A DNA stretch of 64,000 bases from Escherichia coli (GTDB lineage Bacteria; Pseudomonadota; Gammaproteobacteria; Enterobacterales; Enterobacteriaceae). The notes under the pieces are model-generated. The model was not told the DNA's origin. It did not search any database and saw only the letters and a program-made list of their open reading frames with translations. Where the stretch lies: the NCBI RefSeq assembly GCF_050320075.1, contig NZ_CP190018.1; one strand, written 5' to 3'. A program made the position numbers and the translations under genes. Of the stretch, positions 7,230-53,017 are shown in pieces (the first letter of the stretch is position 1; every line of letters starts with the position of its first letter).

Positions 7230-7268
7230 AAACTGCTAAGGTTGCGACTCTTTGGCAACGGAGCGCGT

Positions 7269-10809: not shown

Positions 10810-10981
10810 AATCCCTCACGGTGGAAATAAAAAGGTGGTTCATAGTAAACGTGAAAATCATTCTGCTGGCGAGAGATATAATTGCACTTGATTGTTAAAA
10901 AAATGTTGACCTGTGAAGCAAGTATCAGAGCTGCCGTTTTTGCTTCATACTTACACCCTTCAACAATAAAAATGAGAGGGA

Positions 10982-29254: not shown

Positions 29255-29734
29255 TCATGGCAATTCATTATTTTCGCATAGCGTCAATGACAAAAATCGA
29301 CTGTGTGGATCAAGTTGATAATCAGCAAACGGTTCGCAATCAACGAAACCATGCTTCAAATAAAGTTGATGGCAGGCCGTAAATCCAGCCTGTGTACCCG
29401 TTTCTAAGCTCAGGCGATGAAGGCATCTGTCATGGGCGACCTGCAAAATGTGGCGTAAAATCAGACTGGCGACACCTCGACGTAAATAATTTGGCGCGGT
29501 ACGCATTGATTTCAGTTCGCCATGTTTATCATCCAGCAACTTCAGCGCACCAATTCCTGCGAGTTGTTCGCCTTCCCATACTGACCAGAATGTCACTGTC
29601 GGGTTACGTAATTTTTGCACATCTAAAGCATGACTGCTTTCGGGGGGAGACTGCTGCAGCATGCCGGAAATATGGTAAGCCACTAATGCTTGCACTGCTG
29701 GATGGGTGAGATCATCTGTTTTAATCGTGAACAT
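29255..29734 (-). CDS. yedL: GNAT-family N-acetyltransferase YedL
   Basis: 159-aa ORF with acetyl-CoA binding motif region (RRGVASLILRHILQVA). Confidence 0.85.
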   Translation of the reverse strand: MFTIKTDDLTHPAVQALVAYHISGMLQQSPPESSHALDVQKLRNPTVTFWSVWEGEQLAGIGALKLLDDKHGELKSMRTAPNYLRRGVASLILRHILQVAHDRCLHRLSLETGTQAGFTACHQLYLKHGFVDCEPFADYQLDPHSRFLSLTLCENNELP

Positions 29735-29844
29735 AACGATTCCGCATTGGTGTTATTTTTGCAATATGCCAACAGGTAATGAAATCTTTGTCTAATAGAG
29801 ATTTCTTATGACGCAGTATTGTTGATCAATAATCTTCAGGCTTG

Positions 29845-30513
29845 TCAAACAGGTTGAATTAACGCCGCGCCCTGGTTTTTGACATTACCCACCGCGCGCG
29901 ATACCGGGTGCCAGGTGAACTGGTTTGCTGGCACACAGCCACTGGTAGCGATTTCTGAGGCTTCTTTACCGCCAATATCTTGCCGCATCCATTCCCGCGC
30001 AGCTTCTGGCGACAGTACCAGTGGGCGGCGGTCATGAATATCTACCAGACCCTGGTCTGCTGCTGCAGTGACAATCAAAAATCCTTCGGCTTCGTCACCG
30101 CGCTCGAACGGTGTGCTACCTATCGCGGCCAGAAAAACAGGTTGTCCATCAGCACGATAGATAAAATAAGGCTGCTTTTTGTCGCCTTCTTTTTTCCACT
30201 CAAACCAGCCATCGACAAAACAGATTGCCCGACCATGTTGCCAGAGCGGTTTAAACATGCGACTGGTTGCGGCAGTTTCTACGCGGGCGTTAATCAGCGG
30301 CGGTTTATCCCACCATCCGGGAGCATATCCCCAAAAAACCGGATCCAGATGAAGGTGTTCATCACGTTCACTGAGTAGAAGAACTTTGGTTCCCGGCGCG
30401 ACGTTGTATCTGCCAATGGGTTCGGGATCGTAGGGAATATCGCGTTCAATATCTTCCGCGAGAAGCGCAAGGTAATCTTCACGCGTTTGGGATTGGGCAA
30501 AGCGTCCACACAT
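29845..30513 (-). CDS. yedK: SOS-response-associated peptidase (SRAP) / abasic-site processing protein YedK
   Basis: 222 aa beginning MCGRFAQ (the catalytic Cys2 context characteristic of SRAP/HMCES proteins). Confidence 0.9.
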   Translation of the reverse strand: MCGRFAQSQTREDYLALLAEDIERDIPYDPEPIGRYNVAPGTKVLLLSERDEHLHLDPVFWGYAPGWWDKPPLINARVETAATSRMFKPLWQHGRAICFVDGWFEWKKEGDKKQPYFIYRADGQPVFLAAIGSTPFERGDEAEGFLIVTAAADQGLVDIHDRRPLVLSPEAAREWMRQDIGGKEASEIATSGCVPANQFTWHPVSRAVGNVKNQGAALIQPV

Positions 30514-30619
30514 AGCAACCTCCTGAGATCATACTGAAAAGAATAGGAGAGGGGGCGGGTAAAATCTATGTGTCAGAGGCAACGATGTTCCCGCTGTGGG
30601 CCACAGCGGGAATGAGGGA

Positions 30620-30853
30620 TTACTTCTGAATTAAATAACGAATGGTCGGCCCGTCTTGCTGAATATCCAGCACCGTATAGCCGTGATTACGCGCATCCAG
30701 TGGAATATTATTGATCGACTGCGGACAGTCGCTCACAACTTCCAGGATCTCACCTTTTTTTAATTGCGGCATCGCCTCAAGGGTTGCGACTGCCGGATAA
30801 GGGCAGGGTTCACCCACCATATCAAGGCGGTAATCAGGAACGATATTTTTCAT
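30620..30853 (-). CDS. yedF: TusA-like sulfurtransferase-fold protein YedF
   Basis: 77 aa with CPxP motif (GEPCPYPAV); translationally coupled to yedE. Confidence 0.9.
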   Translation of the reverse strand: MKNIVPDYRLDMVGEPCPYPAVATLEAMPQLKKGEILEVVSDCPQSINNIPLDARNHGYTVLDIQQDGPTIRYLIQK

Positions 30854-32055
30854 GCGATCTCCTTAGCAGTCTGCGGTGCCGCACGGCGGAAGAAGCGTTT
30901 TTCCCAGCCGATAATCAACATCAGCGCAGCAAACAACAGCAAATATGTCACCAGCAGGCCACCCATCGGACCAAAGGTTTTCAGTAGGTTGATTTTGTCC
31001 CAGTCGGTGGCCAGCGCCGGAGCGAAATCATCCCAGTAATACGCCAGAATCGTTGAGCCGATCACGTTGCCCAGACCGACCCACCAGTAGTGCACCTGGC
31101 CTTCTACCGCGCGGTACATCCAGCCGGTTTCGCAGCCGCCTGCCAGCACGATGCCAAAACCAAACAGTAAACCACCAATTACCGCGTTTGGTCCCGCCCA
31201 CATGATTTTGGGTTCAACGCCTAACTGCACGTAACTGAAGATCCCGATGGCACTCACCGCCATACCGATAATGATTGCTTTCGCCATATGGGTACGTCCG
31301 GTGATCCACATATCGCGGAACGCCGAAGTAAAGCAGATTTGCGCACGTTCAATCAGTAAACCAAAGCCGACGCCAAACAGCATTGCCAGCCCCAGTTTTG
31401 GTTGGTTCATCGCCGTCAGCAGTGCCCAGCCCAGCATGCCGAAAAAGACCAGCATCCCGAGACGAAAACGACGCCGCGCCTGATCCGGTTTTTGCGTCAG
31501 CGGTGAGGCGGCAGAAACTTTCTGCATTTTCACGGGAATACGGAAGATGGGCAGCAGGGTAAAGCGCGCGCCAAACCATGAACCAATGGCAGTGGCGATG
31601 GCAAAGAACCAGGCATGCAGCGAGAACTGAGGAATGCCGGTAAAGAACGCCGCCAGGTTACAGCCCATTGCCAGACGCGCGCCAAAACCAGCGATAATGC
31701 CGCCAATAATGGCTTGCATAATGCGGATACGGCTGCGTGGCATGCGTAGTTTGACATTGTTGGCCCACAGCGCTGCAGCAAAGCAGCCGCCAAACATACC
31801 GAGGATCATCATCCCGTCGATGCGGGTTAATGGCGATCCTTCCAGATGGATAATTTTAAAATAACCCCACTCTTCAGCATGGACGCCGAACAGCTGCAGG
31901 AGCTGACCGCCCCAACGGGTAAATTCACCCGTGACAGCCCAAAAGGTGCCAGTGATGCCAAAATAGTAAGTGGAGAGAATACCCGCCGCGATGACCGCAG
32001 GGATGGGCGCCCAGAATTTAATCAACCAGGCGTGTTTGAATTGCTGCCATGACAT
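30850..32055 (-). CDS. yedE: YeeE/YedE-family inner-membrane transporter (selenium/thiosulfate-related)
   Basis: 401-aa polytopic membrane ORF upstream of yedF. Confidence 0.9.
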   Translation of the reverse strand: MSWQQFKHAWLIKFWAPIPAVIAAGILSTYYFGITGTFWAVTGEFTRWGGQLLQLFGVHAEEWGYFKIIHLEGSPLTRIDGMMILGMFGGCFAAALWANNVKLRMPRSRIRIMQAIIGGIIAGFGARLAMGCNLAAFFTGIPQFSLHAWFFAIATAIGSWFGARFTLLPIFRIPVKMQKVSAASPLTQKPDQARRRFRLGMLVFFGMLGWALLTAMNQPKLGLAMLFGVGFGLLIERAQICFTSAFRDMWITGRTHMAKAIIIGMAVSAIGIFSYVQLGVEPKIMWAGPNAVIGGLLFGFGIVLAGGCETGWMYRAVEGQVHYWWVGLGNVIGSTILAYYWDDFAPALATDWDKINLLKTFGPMGGLLVTYLLLFAALMLIIGWEKRFFRRAAPQTAKEIA

Positions 32056-32238
32056 GAATGTAGCCTCTGAACTCAGAAGGTTTGAAACAGGAGTCGCGAA
32101 TCATACACCATGCAAATTTATTTTCGGGGTAATAATTCACAAAAATAATAGTTAGATCAAATTTCTCTCTGAACCTGGAAAGGCTGGCGACATCAGGGCT
32201 TTAATGCCACAATCCTCTTTTCTTCTCATGCAGGACGA

Positions 32239-32655
32239 ATGATGAAAAAACTCGCAATTGCAGGCGCGCTCATGTTGCTGGCGGGCTGTGCCGAAGTCGA
32301 AAACTATAACAATGTCGTGAAAACCCCCGCGCCGGACTGGCTGGCGGGCTACTGGCAGACCAAAGGGCCGCAACGTGCGCTGGTCAGTCCGGAAGCGATA
32401 GGCAGCCTGATTGTCACTAAAGAGGGCGATACTCTGGATTGCCGTCAGTGGCAGCGGGTGATTGCCGTGCCGGGCAAGTTGACATTGATGTCAGATGATC
32501 TCACTAACGTTACCGTAAAACGTGAGCTGTACGAGGTTGAGCGTGACGGTAACACCATTGAGTACGATGGTATGACGATGGAGCGTGTGGATCGCCCGAC
32601 GGCAGAGTGTGCCGCCGCGCTGGATAAAGCGCCGTTACCGACGCCACTGCCGTAA
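32239..32655 (+). CDS. yedD: Lipoprotein YedD
   Basis: Lipobox LLAGC in signal peptide (MMKKLAIAGALMLLAGC). Confidence 0.88.
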   Translation: MMKKLAIAGALMLLAGCAEVENYNNVVKTPAPDWLAGYWQTKGPQRALVSPEAIGSLIVTKEGDTLDCRQWQRVIAVPGKLTLMSDDLTNVTVKRELYEVERDGNTIEYDGMTMERVDRPTAECAAALDKAPLPTPLP

Positions 32656-32688
32656 TGAAATCTCCCCGGCTTGCCGCCGGGGATGAAT

Positions 32689-34176
32689 TTAAATCACCTC
32701 TTCGATAACCCACACGCTGACGCTGCCGCCGTTGCAAAAGAAGGTCGCTTCGCCGTTTTCGTCGGTCACAACGCTCTCTTGCCGATTCCCCAGAAAATCA
32801 CGCCAGGTTTTATTGCCGTAATTCTCTCCCAGATGAATGGTTTTTTCGCCATCATCCCCGTTTGACATAACCACCACGCAGCCGGGATATTCGTCGGTGC
32901 CACTGCGGCTAAAGGCAATGCAGTTCGGATGGTCGAAAAATAACGTCTGTACACCGTGGGCGAAACGCTGACGGGCGAGAATTAACTCATCAAGTTGTTC
33001 GATTATTGGCATATCTATCGGATAGGTTTGCCCGTCACCGCCAACATCTTCGTAATGCGCGCCATAGAGGTCCGGATAGAATACCGAAGGAACGCCATTT
33101 TCCCGCAACAAAATTAGAGCATACGCCAGCGGTTTAAACCACGGTTCGACCGGTGCTTCGAGGGCTTGCAACGGTTGGGTGTCGTGGTTGGCAACGAGTG
33201 TTACGGCGTGAAAAGGATCGGCTTCCACTAATGTACCCGTGAAAATCTGCGTCATGTCGTAGTCGCGCCCCATGCGCGATGCTTCATGGAATTTCATCTG
33301 CAGCGGTGCATCGAACAGCATGGTTTTGCCTTCCACCTGATCAATATACGTTTGCAGTTTATCGACTTCATGCGACCAGTATTCAGCCACAATAAATAGC
33401 GGCTTTGGTGCAACTTCTTGTACGTGTTCGATCCACTCTTTATAAAACCACGCCGGAATATGTTTGACCGCATCAAGACGAAAACCGTCGCATTGCGTTT
33501 GTTCCATCACCCAGCGCGCCCAGTATTTAATCTCTTCCGTCACGGCATGATTGCGGAAATCGATATTCTCGCCCATCAGATAATCGAAATTACCGAGTTC
33601 ATCATCAACCTGATCGTTCCAGCCTTCGCCGGTGTAGTCGTTAACAATTTTAAAAATGCCATCTTCATCAGGGTTTTCGATATGGTCGATACCGCTAAAA
33701 CATTTGAAATCCCAGATAAACTGCGAGTATTGCCCGGCACGGGCGGGGAAGGTGTAACGCGTCCAGCCTTCGCACTCAATGATTTCTTCGTCAATTTGCG
33801 TACGGTCATCAGCATTTACACGCTGCACGCGAATAGCTTCTTTTTCATCCGCGCCCATTTTGTGGTTGACTACCACGTCCAGCAGCACCGCAATGTCATT
33901 ACGTTTCAGAGCGTCAATGGCGGCCAGCAGTTGTGCTTTATCGCCATATTTAGTAGGGATGCTGCCTTTCTGATCAAACTCGCCTAAATCAAATAAATCA
34001 TAGGAGTCGTAGCCGACCGAATACCCGCCCGATGCGCCTTTATAGGCGGGCGGCAACCAGACCATATTGATACCAATATCATTAAAACCGTCGGCGCGCT
34101 CGGCCAGTTCAGGCCAGAGCTTACCGCCTTCCGGGTAATACCAGTGAAAACATTGTAACAGCGTGGGATTACGCAT
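32689..34176 (-). CDS. amyA: Cytoplasmic alpha-amylase AmyA (GH13)
   Basis: 495 aa; GH13 conserved regions ([28 protein letters not shown]). Confidence 0.93.
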
Positions 34177-34253
34177 TCTTCGACTCCATTCAAGGGGAAC
34201 ATTAGAAGCGTAGCCGTAATCGGATTATTCGCGAGCCATCGGCTCGTTAAGAT

Positions 34254-34619
34254 TCAAAAGAGGTTATCCTGCGGAGCCAGCACAAAGCCGCCCTGATCGC
34301 CATAGGCACTTAACACCGATTTTTGCATCGATGACTGACCGACCAGTTTCGCCAGTTCATCCATCCGAATCTGTAATAACTGCTTCACCTTGCTTTCGTT
34401 ATCGAGAATCAGGCGCAGCATCGGGCGGAGTTGCTCCTGCATCGTGGTGGACGGCTCAACCTCTTCAGTCAGGTGTGCAATCTCCTGCACCGCATTCACA
34501 TACGCCATTTCGCTGGCGATGAGTTCGTCCCACTGTTCTTCCGTTGCCAGGCGTAACATGAGCTGGCTTTTTTCGACGAGTTGTTGCCAGGCGAAATACA
34601 AATGCGGTGCGTGGTTCAT
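34254..34619 (-). CDS. fliT: Flagellar chaperone / anti-FlhDC factor FliT
   Basis: 121-aa ORF, last gene of fliDST. Confidence 0.9.
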
Positions 34620-35029
34620 CAGACTGGGTCCTGAATCAAAGAAGGGGAGAGTAACGACTCTTTCCAGGCATCGGCAATATTGCGCATTAATGCTTCCACT
34701 TCTTCGACTGCGGAGACATCGTTGCGTAAATTGGCTTGCAGCAAACGCCTGACCATATAGCTATAAAGAGCAATCAAGTTTTGGGTTAATTCGTCATTGC
34801 TCTCTTCATCAAGACTCACCCGCAGTCCGTTCTCAATAATGTTGATCGCTTTTGACAAAGAGACGCCTTTGCCTTGCTGATTGTTGTCCTGCATAAACAG
34901 GCGCGCTCTAACCAGTGCGCTCAGCACTCCATCAAATAGCATGGTGACCAGCTGCTGCTGGCTGGCGCTCATTACGGCGCTTTCGACGCCAATTTGTGCA
35001 TAGGCCTGGGTGCCTTTTGCCGCGTACAT
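34619..35029 (-). CDS. fliS: Flagellin-specific chaperone FliS
   Basis: 136-aa ORF; operon position. Confidence 0.92.
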
Positions 35030-35053
35030 GACCTGTCTCCCGATGAATATTGA

Positions 35054-36460
35054 TTACTTGGAATTACTGTTGTTTTCGAACTGCTGCGTTAAGTAGCTGC
35101 TGGTGCTGTTTAACGAGGTCATTAAAACGTCCAGTTGGGTAAATTGTTCTTTGTAGCGCGCGACCTGCGCATCAATGCGATCGCTGGCGGCGTTGTAGTC
35201 TTTAGTTAACTTATTCAGGGTCTTACTAACGCCATCGGTAGCGGCTTTAATAATGCCTGTTGTCGAAAGCCAACTGGTCAGGTTGCTGCCGATGGTGGTT
35301 GTGATGCCGGTTTTTTTACCATCGCCAACAATCAATGCACCTACGCCGCTGGCATCTTTTTTCAATGCAGCGGTGAGTTTGTCGGCATCCAGCTCCAGTT
35401 TGCCATCGCTGGGATCGGTCGTGATACCAATCTGCGCCAGCGTTTTATAGTTGGAAGAACTGACGGTATTACTCAGCATCGATTTCAACTGCGTCTGAAT
35501 CGTCCGCAGCGTGGAGTCGCCGAGCAGTGCGCCATTGCTAGAACTCTGGCTATCAGCTCCCGCATCTACGGCGGTGTATTTGGTCAGGCTGCTGAAGGTA
35601 TCTATTAGCGAGTTATAGGCATTCACCCAGTCTTTAATCGCCGTTTGCGCTTTGGAGGTGTCCTGAGTGATGGTTAGCGTCTGGTTGCCCGTGGTGACAT
35701 CGTTCAGGTTCAGGGTGATGTTTTCCAGCGCGTCGCTGATGGTGTTGCTGCTGTTCTCAATGGCGACGTTGTTGACCGTCAGCTGCGCATTCTGGGCGGC
35801 GACCGAGACCTCCATACCGTTGCTACTGGCACTGGCGTCATAGCCCATAAAACTTTGTAGCGCATCATCACCGCTAACCGAGAGCGTCATCGCATTATCA
35901 AGGCCGGTGTCATTCGATGTGACTGACAGACGATATTCACCGTTACCCACGTTAATGATGCTTGCGCTTACACCTGCTTTTGCGTTGTTGATGGCATCAC
36001 GGATCCCGCTTAACGACGAGTTAGCCGCGCTGATATCAATGGTGATCGGCTCTTTGTCGCCGCCTTGTTGAATGGTGAGTTTGCTGTCGCTGGTGGCGAT
36101 CGCCGTTTTCGTATCGTCTCTGGTGGTGCGCGTGGTCAGGGTTTGCGCCTGCGCCAGATGGGTGACGCTGATGGTGTATTTCCCGGCGATGGCGTTACCC
36201 GCAGTGGTGGCACTGAACGCGGTGGTGCTGCTGGTAGTGCTGGTGGCGGAAAAAAGATCGGCTTTAGACAATGCAGTATTGGCGGTCTGGAAAGTCGTCA
36301 GCGCGCTTTTCAGCGTACCGTAGGCGCTAAGTTTAGCGGTAAACGACGATTGCTGATTTGAAATAGGGGTTAGCGTCGCTTTTTGCGCGGCGGTGAGGCT
36401 ATCAAGGATTGAACTTAAATCCAGGCCTGACCCGACTCCCAGCGATGAAATACTTGCCAT
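35054..36460 (-). CDS. fliD: Flagellar filament cap protein FliD
   Basis: 468-aa ORF with conserved N/C coiled-coil termini. Confidence 0.93.
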   Translation of the reverse strand: MASISSLGVGSGLDLSSILDSLTAAQKATLTPISNQQSSFTAKLSAYGTLKSALTTFQTANTALSKADLFSATSTTSSTTAFSATTAGNAIAGKYTISVTHLAQAQTLTTRTTRDDTKTAIATSDSKLTIQQGGDKEPITIDISAANSSLSGIRDAINNAKAGVSASIINVGNGEYRLSVTSNDTGLDNAMTLSVSGDDALQSFMGYDASASSNGMEVSVAAQNAQLTVNNVAIENSSNTISDALENITLNLNDVTTGNQTLTITQDTSKAQTAIKDWVNAYNSLIDTFSSLTKYTAVDAGADSQSSSNGALLGDSTLRTIQTQLKSMLSNTVSSSNYKTLAQIGITTDPSDGKLELDADKLTAALKKDASGVGALIVGDGKKTGITTTIGSNLTSWLSTTGIIKAATDGVSKTLNKLTKDYNAASDRIDAQVARYKEQFTQLDVLMTSLNSTSSYLTQQFENNSNSK

Positions 36461-36503
36461 GCGATTTCCTTTTATCTTTCGACACGTAAAACGAATACCG
36501 GGG

Positions 36504-36530
36504 TTATCGGCCTGAATTGCGCAAAGTTTA
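36504..36530 (-). promoter_or_regulatory. Sigma-28 (FliA) class-3 promoter of fliD
   Basis: Minus-strand TAAA-N15-GCCGATAA read directly from sequence. Confidence 0.7.
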
Positions 36531-36622
36531 CGTTTAATTGTTTTTTTTAATAGCGGGAATAAGGGGCAGAGAAAAGAGTATTTCGGCGACTAACAAAAAA
36601 TGGCTGTTTGTGAAAAAAATTC

Positions 36623-36649
36623 TAAAGGTTGTTTTACGACAGACGATAA
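36623..36649 (+). promoter_or_regulatory. Sigma-28 (FliA) class-3 promoter of fliC
   Basis: TAAAGGTT-N11-GACGATAA upstream of the fliC start. Confidence 0.75.
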
Positions 36650-36725
36650 CAGGGTTGACGGCGATTGAGCCGACGGGTGGAAACCCAATACGTAATCAAC
36701 GACTTGCAATATAGGATAACGAATC

Positions 36726-38396
36726 ATGGCACAAGTCATTAATACCAACAGCCTCTCGCTGATCACTCAAAATAATATCAACAAGAACCAGTCTGCGCTG
36801 TCGAGTTCTATCGAGCGTCTGTCTTCTGGCTTGCGTATTAACAGCGCGAAGGATGACGCCGCAGGTCAGGCGATTGCTAACCGTTTTACTTCTAACATTA
36901 AAGGCCTGACTCAGGCTGCACGTAACGCCAACGACGGTATTTCTGTTGCACAGACCACTGAAGGCGCGCTGTCCGAAATCAACAACAACTTACAGCGTAT
37001 TCGTGAACTGACGGTTCAGGCGACGACCGGAACTAACTCCACCTCTGACCTGGACTCCATTCAGGACGAAATCAAATCCCGTCTTGATGAAATTGACCGC
37101 GTATCCGGCCAGACCCAGTTCAACGGCGTGAACGTACTGTCAAAAGATGGCTCGATGAAAATTCAGGTCGGCGCGAACGATGGTGAAACCATCACGATTG
37201 ATCTGAAAAAGATCGACTCTTCTACATTGAAGCTGACCGGTTTTAACGTGAATGGCGAAGGTGAAACAGCCAATACTGCTGCAACACTTAAAGATATGGT
37301 TGGTTTAAAACTCGATAATACGGGGGTCACTACAGCTGGAGTTAATAGATATATTGCTGACAAAGCCGTCGCAAGTAGCACGGATATTTTGAATGCGGTA
37401 GCTGGTGTTGATGGCAGTAAAGTTTCCACGGAGGCAGATGTTGGTTTTGGTGCGGCTGCCCCTGGTACGCCAGTGGAATATACTTATCATAAAGATACTA
37501 ACACATATACGGCTTCTGCTTCAGTTGATGCGACTCAACTGGCGGCATTCCTGAATCCTGAAGCGGGTGGTACCACTGCTGCAACAGTAAGTATTGGCAA
37601 CGGTACAACAGCTCAAGAGCAAAAAGTCATTATTGCTAAAGATGGTTCTTTAACTGCTGCTGATGACGGTGCCGCTCTCTATCTTGATACTAATGGTAAC
37701 TTAAGTAAAACTAACGCAGGCACTGATACTCAAGCTAAACTGTCTGACTTAATGGCAAACAATGCTAAGGCAAAAACAGTCATTACAACAGATAAAGGTA
37801 CATTTACTGCTAATACGACAAACGATGGTTTTGATGGGGTAGATATTTCTGTTGATGCTTCAACGTTTGCTAATGCCGTTAAAAATGAGACTTACACTGC
37901 AACTGTTGGTGTAACTTTACCAGCGACATATACAGTCAATAATGGCACTGCTGCATCAGCGTATTTAGTCGATGGAAAAGTGAGCCAAACTCCTGCCGAG
38001 TATTTTGCTCAAGCTGATGGCACTATTACTAGTGGTGAAAATGCGGCTACCAGTAAAGCTATCTATGTAAGTGCCAATGGTAACTTAACGACTAACACAA
38101 CGAGTGAATCTGAAGCGACTACCAACCCGCTGGCAGCATTGGATGACGCTATCGCGTCCATCGACAAATTCCGTTCATCCCTTGGTGCTATCCAGAACCG
38201 TCTGGATTCCGCGGTCACCAACCTGAACAACACCACTACCAACCTGTCCGAAGCGCAGTCCCGTATTCAGGACGCCGACTATGCGACCGAAGTGTCCAAC
38301 ATGTCGAAAGCGCAGATTATTCAGCAGGCCGGTAACTCCGTGCTGGCAAAAGCTAACCAGGTACCGCAGCAGGTTCTGTCTCTGCTGCAGGGTTAA
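36726..38396 (+). CDS. fliC: Flagellin FliC (556 aa; non-K-12 central domain)
   Basis: Conserved N-terminus [54 protein letters not shown] and C-terminus ...[13 protein letters not shown]; Thr/Ala/Gly-rich central region. Confidence 0.95.
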
Positions 38397-38434
38397 TCGT
38401 CGTAACCTGATTAACTGAGACTGACGGCAACGCC

Positions 38435-38545
<111 letters not shown>

Positions 38546-38715
38546 ATGGTAATTTGCCAGCAACGTGCTTCCCCGCCACCGGCGGGGTTTTTTCTGTCCG
38601 CAATTTACCGGTAACCCCCAAATAACCCCTCATTTCACCCACTAATCGTCCGATTAAAAACCCTGCAGAAACGGATAATCATGCCGATAACTCATATAAC
38701 GCAGGGCTGTTTATC

Positions 38716-39435
38716 GTGAATTCACTCTATACCGCTGAAGGTGTAATGGATAAACACTCGCTGTGGCAGCGTTATGTCCCGCTGGTGCGTCACGAAGCAT
38801 TGCGCCTGCAGGTTCGACTGCCCGCGAGCGTGGAACTTGACGATCTGCTACAGGCGGGCGGCATTGGGTTACTTAATGCCGTCGAACGCTATGACGCCCT
38901 ACAAGGAACGGCATTTACAACTTACGCAGTGCAGCGTATCCGTGGCGCTATGCTGGATGAACTTCGCAGCCGTGACTGGGTGCCGCGCAGCGTGCGACGC
39001 AACGCGCGTGAAGTGGCACAGGCAATAGGGCAACTGGAGCAGGAACTTGGCCGTAACGCCACGGAAACTGAGGTAGCGGAACGTTTAGGGATCGATATTG
39101 CCGATTATCGCCAAATGTTGCTCGACACCAATAACAGCCAGCTCTTCTCCTACGATGAGTGGCGCGAAGAGCACGGCGATAGCATTGAACTGGTTACTGA
39201 TGATCATCAGCGAGAAAACCCGCTACAACAGCTGCTGGACAGTAATCTGCGCCAGCGGGTGATGGAAGCTATCGAAACGTTGCCGGAGCGCGAAAAACTG
39301 GTATTAACCCTCTATTACCAGGAAGAGCTGAATCTCAAAGAGATTGGCGCGGTGCTGGAGGTCGGGGAATCGCGGGTCAGTCAGTTACACAGCCAGGCCA
39401 TTAAACGGTTACGCACTAAACTGGGTAAGTTATAA
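38716..39435 (+). CDS. fliA: Flagellar sigma factor sigma-28 (FliA)
   Basis: 239 aa, GTG start; sigma-70 family regions 2 and 4. Confidence 0.95.
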   Translation: MNSLYTAEGVMDKHSLWQRYVPLVRHEALRLQVRLPASVELDDLLQAGGIGLLNAVERYDALQGTAFTTYAVQRIRGAMLDELRSRDWVPRSVRRNAREVAQAIGQLEQELGRNATETEVAERLGIDIADYRQMLLDTNNSQLFSYDEWREEHGDSIELVTDDHQRENPLQQLLDSNLRQRVMEAIETLPEREKLVLTLYYQEELNLKEIGAVLEVGESRVSQLHSQAIKRLRTKLGKL

Positions 39436-39480
39436 CGTCAGTAAATGCCGCACTTTAATTTTGACTACCAGGAGTTCTTA

Positions 39481-40032
39481 ATGATGGTGCAGCACCTGAA
39501 AAGACGGCCATTAAGCCGCTATCTTAAAGACTTTAAACACAGCCAGACCCATTGCGCGCATTGCCGTAAATTACTCGACCGCATTACCCTCGTTCGCGAC
39601 GGCAAAATAGTGAATAAAATCGAGATTTCCCGCCTGGACATGCTGCTTGATGAAAATGGCTGGCAAGTGGAACAAAAATCATGGGCGGCATTGTGCCGAT
39701 TCTGCGGTGATTTACATTGCAAAACGCAGAGTGATTTTTTCGATATTATCGGCTTTAAGCAATTTCTTTTTGAGCAAACTGAAATGAGCCCAGGTACGGT
39801 GCGTGAATATGTCGTTCGTCTGCGCCGTTTGGGTAATCATCTACACGAGCAAAATATTTCCCTCGATCAGCTGCAGGATGGTTTCCTTGATGAAATCCTC
39901 GCCCCATGGCTGCCCACCACCAGCACCAACAATTACCGCATCGCGTTACGGAAGTATCAACACTATCAGCGTCAAACGCGTACCGGACTTGTGCAGAAAT
40001 CCTCCAGCCTGCCTGCTTCTGATATATATTAA
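39481..40032 (+). CDS. fliZ: Flagellar regulator FliZ
   Basis: 183-aa product MMVQHLKRRPLSRYLKDF... from internal ATG 39481. Confidence 0.9.
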   Translation: MMVQHLKRRPLSRYLKDFKHSQTHCAHCRKLLDRITLVRDGKIVNKIEISRLDMLLDENGWQVEQKSWAALCRFCGDLHCKTQSDFFDIIGFKQFLFEQTEMSPGTVREYVVRLRRLGNHLHEQNISLDQLQDGFLDEILAPWLPTTSTNNYRIALRKYQHYQRQTRTGLVQKSSSLPASDIY

Positions 40033-40119
40033 ATAAGAATAAGATGTAGCGGAGTTGTTTTTGTGTTTACAAACAATGGCTCTACACTGCAAACAGACAT
40101 AACAACATTCGGGGTGAAT

Positions 40120-42011
<1,892 letters not shown>

Positions 42012-42025
42012 CTCCGGAAACGCTC

Positions 42026-42694
42026 ATGCAAGAAAGTATACAACTGGTTATTGATTCCTTGCCGTTCCTGCTGAAAGGGGCTGGGTATACGCTGCAACTC
42101 AGTATCGGCGGCATGTTTTTTGGCTTACTGCTCGGGTTTATTCTCGCGCTGATGCGCCTTTCGCCAATCTGGCCCGTGCGCTGGCTGGCGCGTTTTTATA
42201 TCTCTATTTTTCGTGGTACGCCGCTCATCGCCCAACTGTTTATGATCTATTACGGCTTGCCGCAGTTTGGCATCGAACTAGATCCCATTCCGTCAGCAAT
42301 GATTGGTCTGTCGCTAAACACTGCCGCCTATGCTGCCGAAACGCTGCGCGCCGCCATTTCTTCTATTGATAAAGGTCAGTGGGAAGCTGCTGCCAGTATT
42401 GGTATGACGCCGTGGCAGACCATGCGTCGCGCGATTTTGCCACAGGCGGCGCGGGTGGCGTTGCCGCCGCTGTCGAACAGCTTTATCAGCCTGGTAAAAG
42501 ATACGTCGCTGGCCGCGACAATCCAGGTGCCGGAGCTGTTCCGTCAGGCGCAGTTGATTACCTCGCGTACGCTGGAGGTGTTCACCATGTACCTGGCGGC
42601 TTCGCTCATCTACTGGATCATGGCGACAGTATTATCGACGTTGCAGAACCATTTTGAGAATCAACTTAATCGCCAGGAGAGAGAACCAAAATGA
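42026..42694 (+). CDS. tcyL: L-cystine ABC transporter permease TcyL (YecS)
   Basis: 222-aa membrane protein with ABC permease EAA-like loop. Confidence 0.92.
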   Translation: MQESIQLVIDSLPFLLKGAGYTLQLSIGGMFFGLLLGFILALMRLSPIWPVRWLARFYISIFRGTPLIAQLFMIYYGLPQFGIELDPIPSAMIGLSLNTAAYAAETLRAAISSIDKGQWEAAASIGMTPWQTMRRAILPQAARVALPPLSNSFISLVKDTSLAATIQVPELFRQAQLITSRTLEVFTMYLAASLIYWIMATVLSTLQNHFENQLNRQEREPK

Positions 42695-43443
42695 GTGCCA
42701 TTGAAGTTAAGAACCTGGTGAAAAAATTCCACGGTCAGACGGTGCTGCACGGTATCGACCTTGAGGTGAAGCCTGGCGAAGTGGTGGCAATTATCGGGCC
42801 AAGTGGTTCCGGCAAAACCACGTTGCTACGCAGCATAAATCTGCTGGAACAACCGGAAGCGGGAACCATCACCGTTGGCGATATCACCATTGATACTGCA
42901 CGTTCATTAAGTCAGCAAAAATCGCTGATTCGCCAGTTGCGTCAGCACGTCGGGTTTGTCTTCCAGAACTTTAATTTGTTTCCGCATCGTACGGTGCTGG
43001 AAAACATTATTGAAGGGCCGGTGATCGTCAAAGGCGAACCGAAAGAAGAGGCCACGGCGCGCGCTCGCGAGCTGCTGGCGAAAGTTGGGCTGGAAGGTAA
43101 AGAAACCAGCTATCCACGTCGTTTGTCTGGCGGTCAACAGCAGCGTGTCGCGATTGCGCGAGCGCTGGCTATGCGTCCTGAGGTGATTTTGTTTGACGAG
43201 CCAACGTCGGCGCTGGATCCAGAGCTGGTGGGCGAAGTCCTGAACACCATCCGCCAGCTGGCGCAGGAAAAGCGCACGATGGTGATTGTGACGCACGAAA
43301 TGAGCTTTGCCCGGGATGTTGCGGACCGGGCGATCTTTATGGACCAGGGGCGGATAGTCGAGCAGGGGGCCGCAAAAGCGTTATTTGCCGATCCTCAGCA
43401 GCCTCGCACCCGCCAGTTCCTCGAGAAGTTTCTGCTGCAATAA
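42691..43443 (+). CDS. tcyN: L-cystine ABC transporter ATP-binding protein TcyN (YecC)
   Basis: Walker A GPSGSGKTT, signature LSGGQQQRVAIARAL, Walker B ILFDEPTSALD. Confidence 0.95.
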   Translation: MSAIEVKNLVKKFHGQTVLHGIDLEVKPGEVVAIIGPSGSGKTTLLRSINLLEQPEAGTITVGDITIDTARSLSQQKSLIRQLRQHVGFVFQNFNLFPHRTVLENIIEGPVIVKGEPKEEATARARELLAKVGLEGKETSYPRRLSGGQQQRVAIARALAMRPEVILFDEPTSALDPELVGEVLNTIRQLAQEKRTMVIVTHEMSFARDVADRAIFMDQGRIVEQGAAKALFADPQQPRTRQFLEKFLLQ

Positions 43444-43672
43444 TAAGAAAAAATCAGCCCCGACGATTCACCTGTCGGGGCGGGACGCCATTTCAAGCGT
43501 GATAAATCTGCTTAACAAATCAGCATAACTCATTAATAACATAAGAGAATGCGATGGCTTGCAAAAGTAATTCATTGCCTGAATAATATAAATTATATAT
43601 AAATCTTATTTATGTGATAGTTTGAATTATCATTATAAATGATACTCACTCTCAGGGGCGTTGCGGTTTACT

Positions 43673-44395
43673 ATGCAGGATACGGATTTTTTCAGCTGGC
43701 GTCGCACGATGCTGTTGCGTTTTCAGAGGATGGAGGCCGCAGAAGAGGTCTACCATGAAATAGAGCTTCAGGCTCAGCAGCTGGAGTACGATTACTATTC
43801 GTTATGTGTTCGCCACCCGGTACCATTCACGCGACCTAAAGTGGCTTTCTACACCAATTACCCTGAGGCTTGGGTTAGTTATTATCAGGCAAAAAACTTT
43901 CTCGCAATTGATCCTGTGCTGAACCCTGAAAACTTTAGTCAGGGCCATTTAATGTGGAATGATGACTTATTCAGCGAAGCACAGCCGTTATGGGAAGCCG
44001 CGCGCGCACATGGTTTACGCCGCGGTGTCACTCAGTATTTAATGCTGCCAAATCGGGCGCTGGGCTTTTTGTCCTTTTCCCGTTGCAGCACGCGCGAAAT
44101 ACCCATTCTTAGTGATGAACTGCAATTAAAAATGCAGTTACTGGTGCGAGAAAGTCTGATGGCTCTGATGCGTTTAAATGATGAAATAGTGATGACGCCA
44201 GAGATGAATTTCAGCAAGCGCGAAAAAGAAATTCTGAAATGGACGGCGGAAGGGAAGACATCAGCAGAGATAGCGATGATTTTGTCAATCTCTGAGAATA
44301 CGGTCAATTTCCATCAGAAAAACATGCAGAAAAAAATCAATGCACCAAATAAGACCCAGGTGGCCTGTTACGCGGCCGCTACTGGCTTAATTTGA
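43673..44395 (+). CDS. sdiA: LuxR-family quorum-sensing regulator SdiA
   Basis: 240-aa product MQDTDFFSWRRTMLLRFQ... with autoinducer-binding domain and C-terminal LuxR HTH. Confidence 0.94.
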   Translation: MQDTDFFSWRRTMLLRFQRMEAAEEVYHEIELQAQQLEYDYYSLCVRHPVPFTRPKVAFYTNYPEAWVSYYQAKNFLAIDPVLNPENFSQGHLMWNDDLFSEAQPLWEAARAHGLRRGVTQYLMLPNRALGFLSFSRCSTREIPILSDELQLKMQLLVRESLMALMRLNDEIVMTPEMNFSKREKEILKWTAEGKTSAEIAMILSISENTVNFHQKNMQKKINAPNKTQVACYAAATGLI

Positions 44396-44427
44396 TCGCT
44401 TTTCTTTCTGCGTGCCAGATGCAAAAA

Positions 44428-44460
44428 CCGGCTGAAAGGCACGCTCTCAGCCGGTTTTAT
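44428..44460. terminator. Bidirectional intrinsic terminator between convergent sdiA and yecF
   Basis: Hairpin CCGGCTGAAAGG...CTCAGCCGG with a T-run on the + strand. Confidence 0.5.
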
Positions 44461-44461
44461 A

Positions 44462-44686
44462 TTACTGACGGTAGGCTTGTTTAATTTGCTTAACCGTTTT
44501 GGAAAATACTGCAGCCTGGGTTTCGTCTTCGATCAGCGCAAGCTGTTTTTCCATCTTTAACATCACGCGGCCCGCGTCAGCTTGTCCCATCGCCTGCAGC
44601 ATCAGCGTCAGCATCGCTTTCAGGCAGGAGACTTCATTTGCCAGTTCTTGATTATTCTCGGCAGTAGAAAAATCAGGCGTACTCAT
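44462..44686 (-). CDS. yecF: Small protein YecF (DUF2594)
   Basis: 74-aa ORF; conserved position between sdiA and uvrY. Confidence 0.85.
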
Positions 44687-45144
44687 TTATTTTCCTCGTC
44701 ATGTTGCAATGAAAATTTGCGGTGAAAAATGTTAAGGCGGCGGAGTATACCATAAGCTTTGCTAAAAATAGCAGTGGTTGTTTTTTGAGCGTGATATCGG
44801 CAGTGCTATAAAATACGTTAATATAATGACCAATAAATATTTTTATCATGAATGTTTTTTGCCCGTATTGTTCGGGTTAATTAATGTTACATATTCAGCG
44901 GGCTGATTTTCATTTTTGCTGAATAAAGTCAATTTTTGTCACATTTCATCGCAGGGCTTACAGTGAAACGATCCCGGAAGCCGTTGGTGACGGGCGTGAC
45001 CATAACTGTGGACAATCGAATTTACAAAAACGAGAGAAAAATCGAATACCCACCATTTTTAACGTTTCAAAGTTGCAATAAAAACCGCTAATATACGAAT
45101 GACTAACTATCAGTAGCGTTATCCCTATTTCTGGAGATATTCCT

Positions 45145-45801
45145 TTGATCAACGTTCTACTTGTTGATGACCACGAACTGGTGCGCGCAGGGATACGACG
45201 CATTCTGGAAGATATAAAGGGTATAAAAGTCGTCGGTGAGGCATCGTGCGGTGAAGACGCCGTTAAGTGGTGCCGGGCAAATGCCGTTGACGTGGTGCTA
45301 ATGGACATGAGTATGCCGGGCATTGGCGGTCTTGAGGCGACGCGTAAAATCGCGCGTTCCACAGCTGATGTCAAAATCATCATGCTTACCGTCCATACAG
45401 AAAACCCTTTACCAGCGAAAGTCATGCAGGCCGGTGCTGCTGGCTACCTCAGCAAAGGCGCGGCTCCGCAGGAAGTCGTGAGTGCGATCCGTTCTGTCTA
45501 TTCAGGGCAGCGTTACATTGCTTCTGACATCGCTCAACAAATGGCGTTAAGCCAGATCGAACCAGAAAAAACAGAAAGCCCATTTGCCAGTTTGTCTGAA
45601 CGTGAATTGCAGATTATGCTGATGATCACCAAGGGCCAGAAGGTCAATGAGATCTCAGAACAGCTCAATCTCAGTCCGAAAACGGTGAACAGCTACCGCT
45701 ATCGTATGTTCAGTAAACTAAACATTCATGGCGATGTTGAGCTGACTCACCTGGCAATTCGCCATGGTCTGTGTAATGCGGAGACATTATCAAGTCAGTG
45801 A
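45145..45801 (+). CDS. uvrY: Response regulator UvrY (BarA/UvrY two-component system)
   Basis: 218 aa, TTG start; receiver domain [16 protein letters not shown]... plus LuxR-type HTH. Confidence 0.94.
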
Positions 45802-47630
45802 GTGATCAGTTTGACGCAAAAGCGTTTTTAAAAACCGTAACCAGCCAGCCAGGCGTTTATCGCATGTATGATGCTGGTGGTACGGTTATCTATGTCGGCA
45901 AAGCGAAAGACCTGAAAAAACGGCTTTCCAGCTATTTCCGTAGCAACCTCGCTTCGCGCAAAACCGAAGCGCTGGTCGCCCAGATCCAGCAAATTGATGT
46001 AACGGTTACTCATACAGAAACCGAAGCGCTGTTGCTGGAACACAACTACATCAAACTCTATCAGCCGCGTTACAACGTTTTGCTACGCGATGATAAATCT
46101 TATCCTTTTATCTTCCTGAGTGGCGATACCCACCCGCGTCTGGCGATGCATCGTGGTGCGAAGCATGCCAAAGGTGAATATTTCGGCCCGTTCCCGAATG
46201 GCTATGCCGTACGTGAAACACTGGCGCTACTGCAAAAGATATTCCCCATTCGCCAGTGCGAAAATAGTGTTTATCGCAATCGCTCGCGTCCGTGTCTGCA
46301 ATATCAGATAGGGCGCTGTCTGGGACCGTGCGTTGAAGGACTGGTGAGTGAAGAAGAATACGCTCAGCAGGTCGAGTATGTGCGCCTGTTTTTGTCTGGC
46401 AAAGATGATCAGGTGCTTACGCAACTCATTAGCCGTATGGAAACTGCCAGCCAGAATCTGGAGTTTGAAGAAGCGGCACGTATTCGCGACCAAATTCAGG
46501 CGGTGCGACGCGTCACCGAAAAACAGTTTGTGTCCAATACCGGCGACGACCTCGACGTTATTGGTGTGGCGTTCGATGCGGGCATGGCTTGTGTCCATGT
46601 ATTGTTCATTCGTCAGGGCAAAGTGCTCGGCAGCCGCAGCTATTTCCCGAAAGTGCCTGGCGGTACGGAACTGAGCGAGGTGGTAGAAACCTTCGTAGGT
46701 CAGTTCTATTTACAAGGCAGCCAGATGCGCACCTTACCGGGTGAGATCCTGCTCGATTTTAATCTTAGCGATAAAACGCTGCTCGCCGATTCCCTTTCAG
46801 AACTGGCGGGACGCAAGATTAATGTTCAAACCAAACCTCGCGGCGATCGGGCGCGTTATCTGAAACTCGCGCGCACCAATGCGGCGACGGCCTTAACCAG
46901 CAAACTTTCGCAGCAATCTACCGTTCACCAGCGACTGACCGCGCTTGCCAGCGTGTTGAAATTGCCGGAAGTGAAGCGGATGGAGTGCTTTGACATCAGC
47001 CATACCATGGGTGAACAAACCGTCGCTTCCTGTGTGGTGTTTGATGCTAACGGCCCGCTGCGTGCGGAGTATCGGCGCTATAACATTACTGGCATCACGC
47101 CGGGCGATGATTATGCGGCGATGAATCAGGTGCTGCGTCGGCGTTATGGTAAAGCCATCGACGACAGTAAGATCCCGGATGTGATCCTTATTGACGGCGG
47201 CAAAGGCCAGCTTGCGCAGGCGAAAAATGTCTTCGCCGAACTGGATGTCTCATGGGATAAAAATCATCCGCTGCTTCTTGGCGTTGCCAAAGGTGCAGAT
47301 AGGAAGGCAGGGTTGGAAACGCTGTTCTTTGAGCCGGAAGGTGAGGGATTCAGTTTGCCGCCAGATTCTCCCGCGCTGCATGTTATCCAGCATATTCGCG
47401 ATGAATCACACGATCACGCGATTGGCGGGCACCGTAAGAAACGGGCGAAGGTCAAAAATACCAGTTCCCTGGAAACCATTGAAGGCGTCGGGCCAAAACG
47501 TCGGCAAATGTTGTTGAAATATATGGGCGGTTTGCAAGGTTTACGTAACGCCAGCGTTGAGGATATTGCAAAAGTGCCGGGTATTTCGCAAGGTCTGGCA
47601 GAAAAGATCTTCTGGTCGTTGAAACATTGA
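45798..47630 (+). CDS. uvrC: Excinuclease ABC subunit C (UvrC)
   Basis: 610 aa; GIY-YIG motif (GVYRMYD...YVGKA), UvrBC domain, C-terminal HhH; start overlaps uvrY stop. Confidence 0.95.
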
Positions 47631-47686
47631 TGTCTCTGTAGCAACATAGGGGTAATCTTACTGACAACAGATAGTTACCCGTCATT

Positions 47687-48235
47687 ATGCAATTTAATAT
47701 CCCTACGTTGCTTACACTGTTCCGTGTCATCCTTATCCCATTCTTTGTATTGGTCTTTTATCTGCCTGTCACCTGGTCGCCGTTTGCCGCCGCGCTCATT
47801 TTCTGCGTCGCGGCGGTGACTGACTGGTTCGATGGTTTTCTGGCACGCCGCTGGAACCAGAGTACCCGGTTTGGTGCTTTCCTTGACCCTGTAGCAGATA
47901 AAGTTCTCGTGGCTATCGCCATGGTGCTGGTAACCGAGCATTATCACAGCTGGTGGGTGACCTTACCGGCAGCAACGATGATCGCCCGTGAAATTATTAT
48001 TTCTGCGCTACGCGAATGGATGGCGGAGTTGGGTAAACGCAGTAGCGTGGCTGTCTCCTGGATTGGGAAAGTGAAAACCACCGCCCAGATGGTGGCGCTG
48101 GCCTGGCTGCTGTGGCGTCCGAACATTTGGGTTGAGTACGCCGGTATTGCACTTTTCTTTGTGGCTGCGGTACTGACTCTGTGGTCAATGTTGCAATATT
48201 TGAGCGCTGCGCGTGCAGATTTGCTTGATCAGTGA
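47687..48235 (+). CDS. pgsA: CDP-diacylglycerol--glycerol-3-phosphate 3-phosphatidyltransferase PgsA
   Basis: 182 aa; CDP-alcohol phosphotransferase motif region ([10 protein letters not shown]...[10 protein letters not shown]). Confidence 0.94.
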
Positions 48236-48386
48236 TCGTTTCGGCGCAATTTTCAGCAAACGATCAAAAGTGGTGAAAAATATCGTTGACTCATCGCGCC
48301 AGGTAAGTAGAATGCAACGCATCGAACGGCGGCACTGATTGCCAGACGATAATAAAATCAAGTGATTAACTGATTGCTTGATGAAT

Positions 48387-48462
<76 letters not shown>

Positions 48463-48516
48463 GTTTAAAAGGCATCGGCGTCAAGCGGATGTCTGGCTGA
48501 AAGGCCTGAAGAATTT

Positions 48517-48590
48517 GGCGCGTTAACAAAGCGGTTATGTAGCGGATTGCAAATCCGTCTAGTCCGGTTCGACTCCGGAACGCGCCTCCA
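48517..48590 (+). tRNA. cysT: tRNA-Cys (anticodon GCA)
   Basis: 74-nt GGCGCGTTAACAAAGCGGTTATGTAGCGGATTGCAAATCCGTCTAGTCCGGTTCGACTCCGGAACGCGCCTCCA. Confidence 0.95.
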
Positions 48591-48602
48591 CTTTCTTCCC
48601 GA

Positions 48603-48689
48603 GCCCGGATGGTGGAATCGGTAGACACAAGGGATTTAAAATCCCTCGGCGTTCGCGCTGTGCGGGTTCAAGTCCCGCTCCGGGTACCA
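48603..48689 (+). tRNA. leuZ: tRNA-Leu (anticodon UAA), with long variable arm
   Basis: 87-nt GCCCGGATGGTGGAATCGGTAGACACAAGGGATTTAAAATCCC...GGTACCA. Confidence 0.95.
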
Positions 48690-48763
48690 TGGGAAAGATA
48701 AGAATAAAATCAAAGCAATAAGCAGTGTCGTGAAACCACCTTCGGGTGGTTTTTTTGTGCCTG
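48634..48763. repeat. Left direct repeat (attL-like): 3' part of leuZ plus its downstream terminator
   Basis: 130 bp identical, apart from one indel, to 52766..52896; covers the anticodon-loop-to-3'-end of tRNA-Leu and the hairpin AAACCACCTTCGGGTGGTTTTTTTGT. Confidence 0.85.
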
Positions 48764-48941
48764 AAATTCACGCCCTGTGCATATCCTGTGCTCACGGGGG
48801 GCAATGAGCTGCAATCTCAAGCCCGGCAATGCCGAATCGAACGTGTCGCCTCCAGCATAGAGAACCAGGCCGCTTTGCCTGTTTTCCGGTACTCTTCCGG
48901 GAAGGGGGGCCAGCTGAGCAAGCTATAATGCTCTGGCCACC

Positions 48942-49673
48942 CTAAGCACAAAGTTGCTTAATTCGTGCAATCACCTCATCTCTGTATTTCTGGTGTCCGC
49001 GCATAGCCCTTGGATGGGCTATCCTGAAACAGATTGTATGACCTGTTTTGAACTCCCATAGCTTCCCCGGAATGACTGAAGAAGTCTCATAGCCGCCTAG
49101 CTCAGTAAGCACCTGTTTTATGATGTAGTCTGTTCTCCGGGCTCCGGATGCAAAGATGGTGAAATCAGGCTCAAGGTGTTTAATTTGTACCGCCAGCAGT
49201 TTCAGCGAGGCTAATATGACTTCCTGCACTTCATTTTGAGGGCGATTGAGAGGGGGCAGTCCGTCGTAATCCCACGCCAGTAGATTGGCATACACGATAG
49301 CCTGAGGAGGAATATTAAGCTCCCGGGCCAGCCGGAAGTGATACTGCGTGAAGCGGCTACGTGATTTGTGGTTCGTGGTGCCATCATTTTGTGCCGGAAG
49401 ATGTTTCCTGTAACGATCTACAGCCTCTTCAACCACCTGCCCGATGGTGACGTCAGGTATAAGTCCCAGAACCCGTGATATCGTATTCTTACCATTCAGC
49501 GTATTCCAGCCAGCGGTTTCACGCCCAACCAGCATGATTTTTACCGGTGAGTGCCAGTATTCTTCAAAGGGCACGGGTAAAAAGACGCCTGAGTATTTAT
49601 CCTCATTCAGGTTAAATGACTGGGCGTCAACTTCCTGTAATATCCGTTTGTATGCGTCTAATAGTCTTTCCAT
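48942..49673 (-). CDS. Hypothetical protein, possible UDG-superfamily (DNA glycosylase-like) fold
   Basis: 243-aa ORF inside the islet; beta-strand plus Gly motif (VKIMLVGRETAGW) near the N-terminus and C-terminal HP motif (FRIAHPRAMRG), similar in position to UDG motifs 1 and 2. Weak, motif-level only. Confidence 0.35.
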   Translation of the reverse strand: MERLLDAYKRILQEVDAQSFNLNEDKYSGVFLPVPFEEYWHSPVKIMLVGRETAGWNTLNGKNTISRVLGLIPDVTIGQVVEEAVDRYRKHLPAQNDGTTNHKSRSRFTQYHFRLARELNIPPQAIVYANLLAWDYDGLPPLNRPQNEVQEVILASLKLLAVQIKHLEPDFTIFASGARRTDYIIKQVLTELGGYETSSVIPGKLWEFKTGHTICFRIAHPRAMRGHQKYRDEVIARIKQLCA

Positions 49674-49723
49674 TCTTCAATCCTGCCCCGTAATAAAAAT
49701 ACCTTCAGATATATATTATTTTC

Positions 49724-50440
49724 ATGATATCAATCAGATACATGAGGATAAATATGCAAAAATCCTTCCGATTCACCAATTCATCCATCAAAGCCCTTCC
49801 GGCAAACACAGATACCCGATCTACAGAGCTTGAGGTATCTGATACCGAAGTCATTGGCCTCAAATGCCTCTCAGGTCGAACGGGCAACAAACGTTTCCTC
49901 CTGCGCTACACATTCCACGGTACCAAAAAAAGTATCAGTATTGGCAGATTCCCTGAAATCGATGTGGGAACAGCCCGTCAGATAGCTCGTCGTCACAAGG
50001 AGGCGATTGCACTGGGAAATGACCCTAAGGCAGAGCGCGATAATTATCGGGCGATGCCAACGCTTAGTGAGTTTTTTCACCAGACCTATGTTCCGTTCAT
50101 CAAGCGCCATAAAAAGTCCTGGGATAAGGATGTTCAGCGTTTCACGCAATACATTGAACCTCGTCTGGGGAAGATACGTTACTGCGACCTTCAGGCCCGG
50201 GAAATCCAGCAGGTGCTTTTTGACATGCTTGAGGGCCGTATTCACGGCCAGCAGTATGCACCGTCTACCTGTAACAGGGCACTGGCTATTCTGAAAACCA
50301 TGGGCCGTTATGCGCTACGACAGGATGTCCTGGAGAAGAATGAAGCCGATAAGATCCCTTTGCTGAAGGAGAATAATCACCGGACGCGCTTTTTTGACGC
50401 TGATGAGATCAGGAGAATCCTTGATGCTGCGTCTCGATAA
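49724..50440 (+). pseudogene. Truncated tyrosine recombinase (P4-type integrase N-terminal arm-binding plus SAM-like region; catalytic domain absent)
   Basis: 238-aa ORF with integrase N-terminal signature (FTNSSIKALP..., GLKCLSGRTGNKRFLLRYTFHGTKKSISIGRFPEIDVGTARQIARRHKEA) but ending before the catalytic R..HxxR..Y domain; adjacent to a tRNA att site. Confidence 0.7.
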
Positions 50441-50454
50441 CCCAATAAAGCTGC

Positions 50455-50490
<36 letters not shown>

Positions 50491-50491
50491 C

Positions 50492-50535
<44 letters not shown>

Positions 50536-50655
50536 TTCTAAGGCTTGCTTTAATGCTAAGGCTAAATGATTTTGATATAGTAAGTTCATACTTAGCGGGC
50601 AGATGCCCACAGACATAGTACCGAAAATAAATCAGGTATTCTGCGAGATTTCAGT

Positions 50656-52592: not shown

Positions 52593-52765
52593 CATAGGTG
52601 AAATGAATTGGCTCAGGTGCGTACAAGGGGAAGACTTACCTGTGCAGCTTCTGTGTTCAACGTTATCCATGTCTATCTATTTACTGCCAATTACAGTAAA
52701 GTTGGTGGATAATTACAGCAAAGTGTTGCAATGGGTTGCTATGTAAATCATTGATCCTGCGTAGA

Positions 52766-52896
52766 ATTTAAAATCCCTCGGCGTTCGCGCTGTGCGGGTT
52801 CAAGTACCCGCTCCGGGTACCATGGGAAAGATAAGAATAAAATCAAAGCAATAAGCAGTGTCGTGAAACCACCTTCGGGTGGTTTTTTTGTGCCTG
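52766..52896. repeat. Right direct repeat (attR-like): partial copy of leuZ 3' part plus terminator
   Basis: 131-bp copy of 48634..48763 with a single-nucleotide insertion (CAAGTACCCGCT versus CAAGTCCCGCT); lacks the tRNA 5' half, so it is not a functional tRNA. Confidence 0.85.
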
Positions 52897-53017
52897 CAAC
52901 TTGTCGTTACACCCTCCTTAATTTTTAATCACCGGCAAAGCCACTCAAAAAGTATCTCTGTTACGGACCGACATGTAAGATAGGTGCTGGCGAGTTGAGA
53001 TCCACAAGGAAAAGCGT

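Follow-up and report, generated by a model that had tools for sequence, protein, structure and literature searches.

The core of the flagellar filament is made by the D0/D1 coiled-coil regions of flagellin, which correspond to its conserved termini. The described flagellins most like the one analyzed here belong to the H18 type, for which EAEC 042 is the O44:H18 prototype, with flagellar genes that, according to its genome paper, encode the H18 serotype (PMC2808357). MS14384, a strain of ST963, was typed in silico as OgN12:H18 with SeroTypeFinder (PMC10024524), and CE2050, which carries the same allele, is the ST963 reference genome (PMC9429958); the main text of the latter paper gives no serotype. 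More distant are the H6 and H7 flagellins, in which three outer domains, D2-D4, pair into an outer sheath (PMC8931119), and the H48 flagellin of K-12 (b1923; PDB 8CXM), which has the locus, promoter, 3′ untranslated region (UTR) and conserved termini in common with the gene described here, whereas its central part is unrelated in sequence.

The window, that is, the whole stretch of 64,000 nucleotides of Escherichia coli DNA that was analyzed, contains a complete fliC gene. We consider it highly probable that this is a normal chromosomal H18-type flagellin gene, in a strain within or near the ST963/ST38-related lineage, and that its allele has been subject to exchange by recombination.

The fliC locus

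The genes and regulatory elements around fliC are as follows:

34254–34619, minus strand: fliT (open reading frame, ORF; annotation of the identical MS14384 sequence)
34619–35029, minus strand: fliS (ORF; annotation of the identical MS14384 sequence)
35054–36460, minus strand: fliD, filament cap, 468 aa (ORF; annotation of the identical MS14384 sequence)
36504–36530, minus strand: predicted divergent sigma-28-type promoter for fliDST, TAAACTTT-N11-GCCGATAA (pattern match with one mismatch)
36623–36649, plus strand: predicted sigma-28 (FliA) class-3 promoter of fliC, TAAAGGTT-N11-GACGATAA (exact pattern match)
36726–38396, plus strand: fliC, flagellin, 556 aa, H18-type allele (uninterrupted ORF; Pfam; allele identity)
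38397–38597, plus strand: fliC 3′ UTR, putative counterpart of the K-12 small RNA FliX (K-12 alignment; terminator scan)
38716–39435, plus strand: fliA, the sigma-28 factor driving fliC, with fliZ next (ORF; MS14384 annotation)

The gene order, with amyA, fliT, fliS and fliD on the minus strand and fliC, fliA, fliZ, tcyJ and dcyD on the plus strand, is that of K-12 on the opposite strand and represents the standard E. coli arrangement. Pfam identifies Flagellin_N (PF00669) at aa 5–140 of FliC (E = 2.9e-46), Flagellin_C (PF00700) at aa 470–554 (E = 1.4e-31) and, between them, the enterobacterial domain “FliC” (PF12445) at aa 344–460, and the protein matches many solved filament structures over its full length. 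The window gene belongs to the FliC/FljB family: Flagellin_N and Flagellin_C surround a variable insert, and the gene lies in a fliD-fliC-fliA locus behind a sigma-28 class-3 promoter.

For the sigma-28 promoter pattern, 0.01 chance matches are expected in the whole window, and the sequence between fliD and fliC shares 99.2% identity with K-12. Downstream of the gene, the terminator scan found an intrinsic terminator, with the stem at 38571–38587 followed by a T-run, about 175 nt after the fliC stop codon. The 3′ UTR together with the fliC-fliA spacer shows a mean column identity of 98% to K-12, in the annotation of which fliX is located directly downstream of fliC. An Rfam scan of the 33–43 kb portion at the gathering threshold produced no match, so that the assignment of a FliX-like 3′ UTR derives solely from the K-12 alignment. 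The fliC promoter, the terminator and the neighboring fli genes are intact.

The central region of FliC

Three parts of fliC are readily discernible:

36726–37220, plus strand: conserved 5′ part, aa 1–165, N-terminal D0/D1 filament-core helices (identity to K-12 and H6; Flagellin_N)
37221–38123, plus strand: variable central region, aa ~166–466, predicted surface-exposed outer domains and H antigen determinant (low identity to K-12 and H15, 56% aa identity to H6; dip in GC content)
38124–38396, plus strand: conserved 3′ part, aa 467–556, C-terminal D1/D0 helices (identity to K-12; Flagellin_C)

The earlier note described a 556-aa FliC with a long central segment rich in Thr, Ala, Asn and Gly between conserved termini, placed the part that differs from K-12 at 37250–38100 and concluded that the strain has a non-K-12 H type. 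All of this agrees with our comparison to the K-12 protein, which comprises 498 aa and is therefore 58 aa shorter. In blocks of 20 aa, the identity to K-12 FliC is 85–100% for aa 1–160, drops to 45% for aa 161–180 and to 5–35% per block for aa 181–460, and rises again to 65% for aa 461–480 and 95–100% from aa 481 onward. At the nucleotide level, identity to K-12 amounts to 97–99% in the flanking genes and 90–91% at the conserved fliC ends (89.7% for the 5′ part), against 41% for 37221–38123; this last value, like the amino acid identity of about 20% for the same region, comes from a forced alignment. Identity of the central region to K-12 H48, which the earlier note had named as the observation that would speak against its reading, was thus looked for and is not what we find: the center cannot be aligned with its K-12 counterpart and is accordingly not H48. 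The interval 37250–38100 corresponds to aa 175–459 and is completely contained in the variable block, which is slightly wider (~37221–38123); compared with the H15 allele, the limit of the block reaches 38179, with less than 75% nucleotide identity across 37221–38179. Thr, Ala, Asn and Gly make up 51% of aa 175–459 compared to 35% of the N-terminal part (Ala 16.8%, Thr 16.5%, Gly 9.5%, Asn 8.1%, and in addition Val 8.1%), and the GC content is 0.39–0.44 in 37500–38100 compared to about 0.50 in the flanks.

The nearest solved structures are the cryo-EM chains of the flagellin of EPEC O127:H6, 7SQJ (E = 4e-235) and 7SN7 (E = 7e-234), both of which align with the window FliC end to end. The overall amino acid identity to this flagellin is 75%, with 97.6% and 95.6% in the N- and C-terminal parts, respectively (about 97% for D0/D1), and 56% in the center, where several short insertions and deletions separate the two proteins, which represent different H types. 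Given that the match to H6 extends across the whole center, three outer domains are implied for the window FliC as well, and the H18 center should possess an H6-like three-domain D2-D4 architecture. The trait that defines the sheath-forming class of H6 and H7 flagellins is the pairing of outer domains, and the likeness of the window protein to this class is one of sequence alone. An AlphaFold2 model built from an alignment of 6 sequences was poor (pLDDT 60, pTM 0.40), which leaves homology to H6 as the sole basis of the proposed outer-domain architecture. A Foldseek search with this low-confidence model returned 7SN7 at the top, followed by 7SN4, with a TM score of only 0.35, so its agreement with the sequence search carries no independent weight.

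H18 alleles, H15 sisters and the stretch around fliC

A megablast search with the fliC allele against 5426 complete E. coli genomes detected fliC-like sequences in 5373 of them, at least 80% coverage of the allele in 218, and at least 99% identity in only 15; in 14 of these 15, the allele is identical, whereas about 200 genomes carry forms of 554 or 552 aa instead. One of the genomes with a 554-aa H18 allele, NCTC9112, has a fliD annotated as frameshifted (L003 1328-2735), so that this strain may be non-flagellated despite its intact fliC.

The H18 genotype follows from two comparisons. A 7.7 kb segment around fliC is identical to that of MS14384, as confirmed by a base-by-base check, and the byte-identical allele of that strain was called H18 by SeroTypeFinder, which links the window to a curated database indirectly (PMC10024524). 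EAEC 042, the best match outside the window’s own clade over 15 kb, carries in the same fliD-fliA locus a flagellin of 554 aa that is similar to the window FliC over its full length: the identity is 96.6% for nucleotides of the whole gene, 97.1% for nucleotides of the center and 98% for amino acids, and 042 is serologically H18. With one in-silico-typed genome and one serotyped strain as a strong proxy, the window fliC is, at the level of genotype, a variant of fliC-H18. The suggestion of the earlier note that the region may help strain typing is borne out by the identity to the H18-typed MS14384 allele, the similarity to 042 and the small number of genomes with close matches. A literature search yielded no serotype information for the nearest strains, including YZLc1-3, Ec-U3 and LH85-a.

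The 11 amino acid differences between the window FliC and that of 042 include a 2-residue insertion in the former at aa 367–368 and, in the center, T322D/N323T, K348N, Q421K and the replacement of K in 042 by NDG at 366–368. Because 8 residues and the 2-aa insertion are located in or next to the exposed region, some epitopes of the 556-aa variant may differ from those of 042. Relative to other H18 alleles, the window gene shows clusters of differences at 36926–37125 and 37726–37925. The 5′ end of fliC diverges from 042 by 4.6%, more than the center, for which the divergence is 2.9%, and this points to a mosaic structure within the gene.

The earlier note also called the central region a typical hot spot of horizontal exchange, and genomes that have the same flanks as the window and another flagellin gene provide support for this. 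In the segments 7000–23500 and 45000–64000, the window is 99.8–100% identical to two sets of genomes. The first is the H18 clade; the second, which includes LH85-a, 144, Z142-2/4/7, 19A14 and KGu016 and contributes none of the fliC matches of at least 99%, has the same chromosomal backbone and gene order as the window, together with a fliC of 562 aa (WP_021561320.1). The center of the 562-aa gene is 98.4% identical to that of a genome labeled “O166:H15” and the stretch around it shares 98.9% identity with a genome labeled “O7:H15”, which identifies this allele as H15.

We aligned the 23500–45000 segment of the window with LH85-a and counted the differences, which delimits the following feature:

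32770–43507, no strand assigned: putative homologous-recombination stretch of ~10.7 kb, from amyA to tcyN (alignment of the window with LH85-a; flank identities)

Only 2 differences were found in 23500–32769 and 2 in 43508–45000, that is, 4 in 10.8 kb (0.04%), so that the sisters are 99.96% identical outside the stretch. Inside it, the non-fliC sequence of about 9 kb contains ~107 differences (~1.2%), and the center of fliC is fully replaced. The confinement of the differences to ~10.7 kb around fliC bears the mark of one import by homologous recombination, and the near-identical genomes, the bounded stretch that includes fliC and the raised density of substitutions in the co-transferred flanks are what is expected of an H-antigen switch. 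Judging by this pattern, a single import of ~10.7 kb switched the H antigen within the lineage and produced the H15 and H18 sisters, in either direction. The search for a donor on the H18 side (window 30000–45000) gave a best match of 98.7% outside the window’s own clade, and the search with the H15 stretch one of 98.9% outside its own clade.

The best match for each of the segments 7000–23500, 30000–45000 and 45000–64000 is to YZLc1-3 and Ec-U3. The window differs from MS14384 at 8 positions over 24–64 kb and diverges from it by 1–3% over 1–24 kb, which places a second recombination boundary near 23–24 kb (fliI/fliH), within fliE-fliR, and shows that the window does not come from MS14384, although the two are identical around fliC. 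The most divergent spot is a gene at ~5119–6300, annotated as “porin” in MS14384, where 5119–5793 cannot be aligned and more than 100 differences occur in 6–7 kb; this gene looks like another hot spot of surface-protein replacement. Between fliE and yedL, an integrase fragment (27719–27817) and a frameshifted DUF5503 gene (28003–29117), both defined by the annotation of the nearly identical MS14384 sequence, appear to be what is left of a small insertion after decay. At tRNA-Leu(taa), where the Gly-Cys-Leu tRNA cluster (48387–48689) ends, there is an islet of ~4.2 kb (48634–52896) flanked by a 131-bp direct repeat (48634–48763 and 52766–52896, with one indel). The islet contains a hypothetical gene for 243 aa (48942–49673, minus strand), a truncated integrase (~49.7–50.4 kb) and a Septu-type anti-phage pair, namely the ATPase PtuA (50656–51984, PADLOC E = 2e-190) and the HNH nuclease PtuB (51981–52592, E = 6e-61).

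Proposed mechanism, alternatives and meaning

The mechanism we favor can be outlined as follows. Transcription of fliC would be initiated at the class-3 promoter by FliA (sigma-28) and ended at the intrinsic terminator. In the filament, the D0/D1 terminal helices would build the core and carry the determinants of export and polymerization as well as the surface recognized by TLR5, and the central insert of ~300 aa, presumably forming outer domains that are homologs of H6 D2-D4, would decorate the filament surface and constitute the H antigen. Homologous recombination within the conserved flanks would exchange entire fliC alleles among E. coli lineages, possibly driven by selection through immunity or phages, and such swaps would explain why the center is unlike that of K-12 H48.

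Surface antigens are under diversifying selection, and the difference from K-12 could in principle have arisen by divergence in place, with such selection acting on the center, instead of horizontal exchange; that most of the ~47 nucleotide differences from other H18 alleles must be synonymous, given the few amino acid changes, would fit as well. We find this origin hardly credible because the center is unalignable not only with H48 but also with H15, because the 5′ end of the gene is more divergent from 042 than the center, as in a mosaic, and because sisters that are almost identical elsewhere differ within a sharply bounded stretch, including its housekeeping genes (~1.2%), a pattern that point mutation cannot account for. 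We also think it very unlikely that the 556-aa allele, through its substitutions and the 2-aa insertion, represents an antigenically distinct or new H type or an H18 sub-factor. The differences from 042, those at positions 322–323, 348, 366–368 and 421 of the center among them, and the rarity of the variant compared to the 554- and 552-aa forms are compatible with a type of its own, but recognized H types diverge far more (as illustrated by the 56% amino acid identity between the H18 and H6 centers) than the window FliC does from 042, and SeroTypeFinder assigned the identical allele to H18.

A further possibility, compatible with allele exchange in a normal H18-type gene, is that fliC is present but silent, or the strain non-motile, in which case H18 would describe only the genotype, with an H- phenotype. 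In E. coli, it is common for isolates to be non-motile although fliC is intact, which speaks for this possibility; we nevertheless regard it as unlikely, given that the fliC ORF, its sigma-28 promoter and terminator, fliA, fliZ and fliDST are all intact in the window and that fliE-fliR is annotated as intact in the related MS14384, to which the window is near-identical from ~24 kb onward and 1–3% divergent before that point. Retaining the H18-type gene with recombinational exchange as the preferred explanation, one can tentatively go further and propose that the 556-aa form (15 of 5426 genomes) is a clade-restricted H18 sub-variant with a mosaic 5′ end and an outer-domain 2-aa insertion, antigenically or structurally distinguishable from classical H18, whose filament would bear an H6-like outer-domain sheath with effects on TLR5 signaling and on swimming through viscous media; we consider this extended proposal unlikely.

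None of these findings goes beyond established biology, and 14 public complete genomes already contain the exact allele. They supply the H component of the serotype as an H18 genotype, and H18 combined with exact matches to genomes of the ST963 type places the window in a known extraintestinal, ESBL/AmpC-associated lineage related to ST38. The pair of near-identical chromosomes with H18 and H15 would represent a textbook case of antigen switching by a recombination import of ~10 kb, and the H15/H18 stretch could serve as a marker for typing of sub-lineages.
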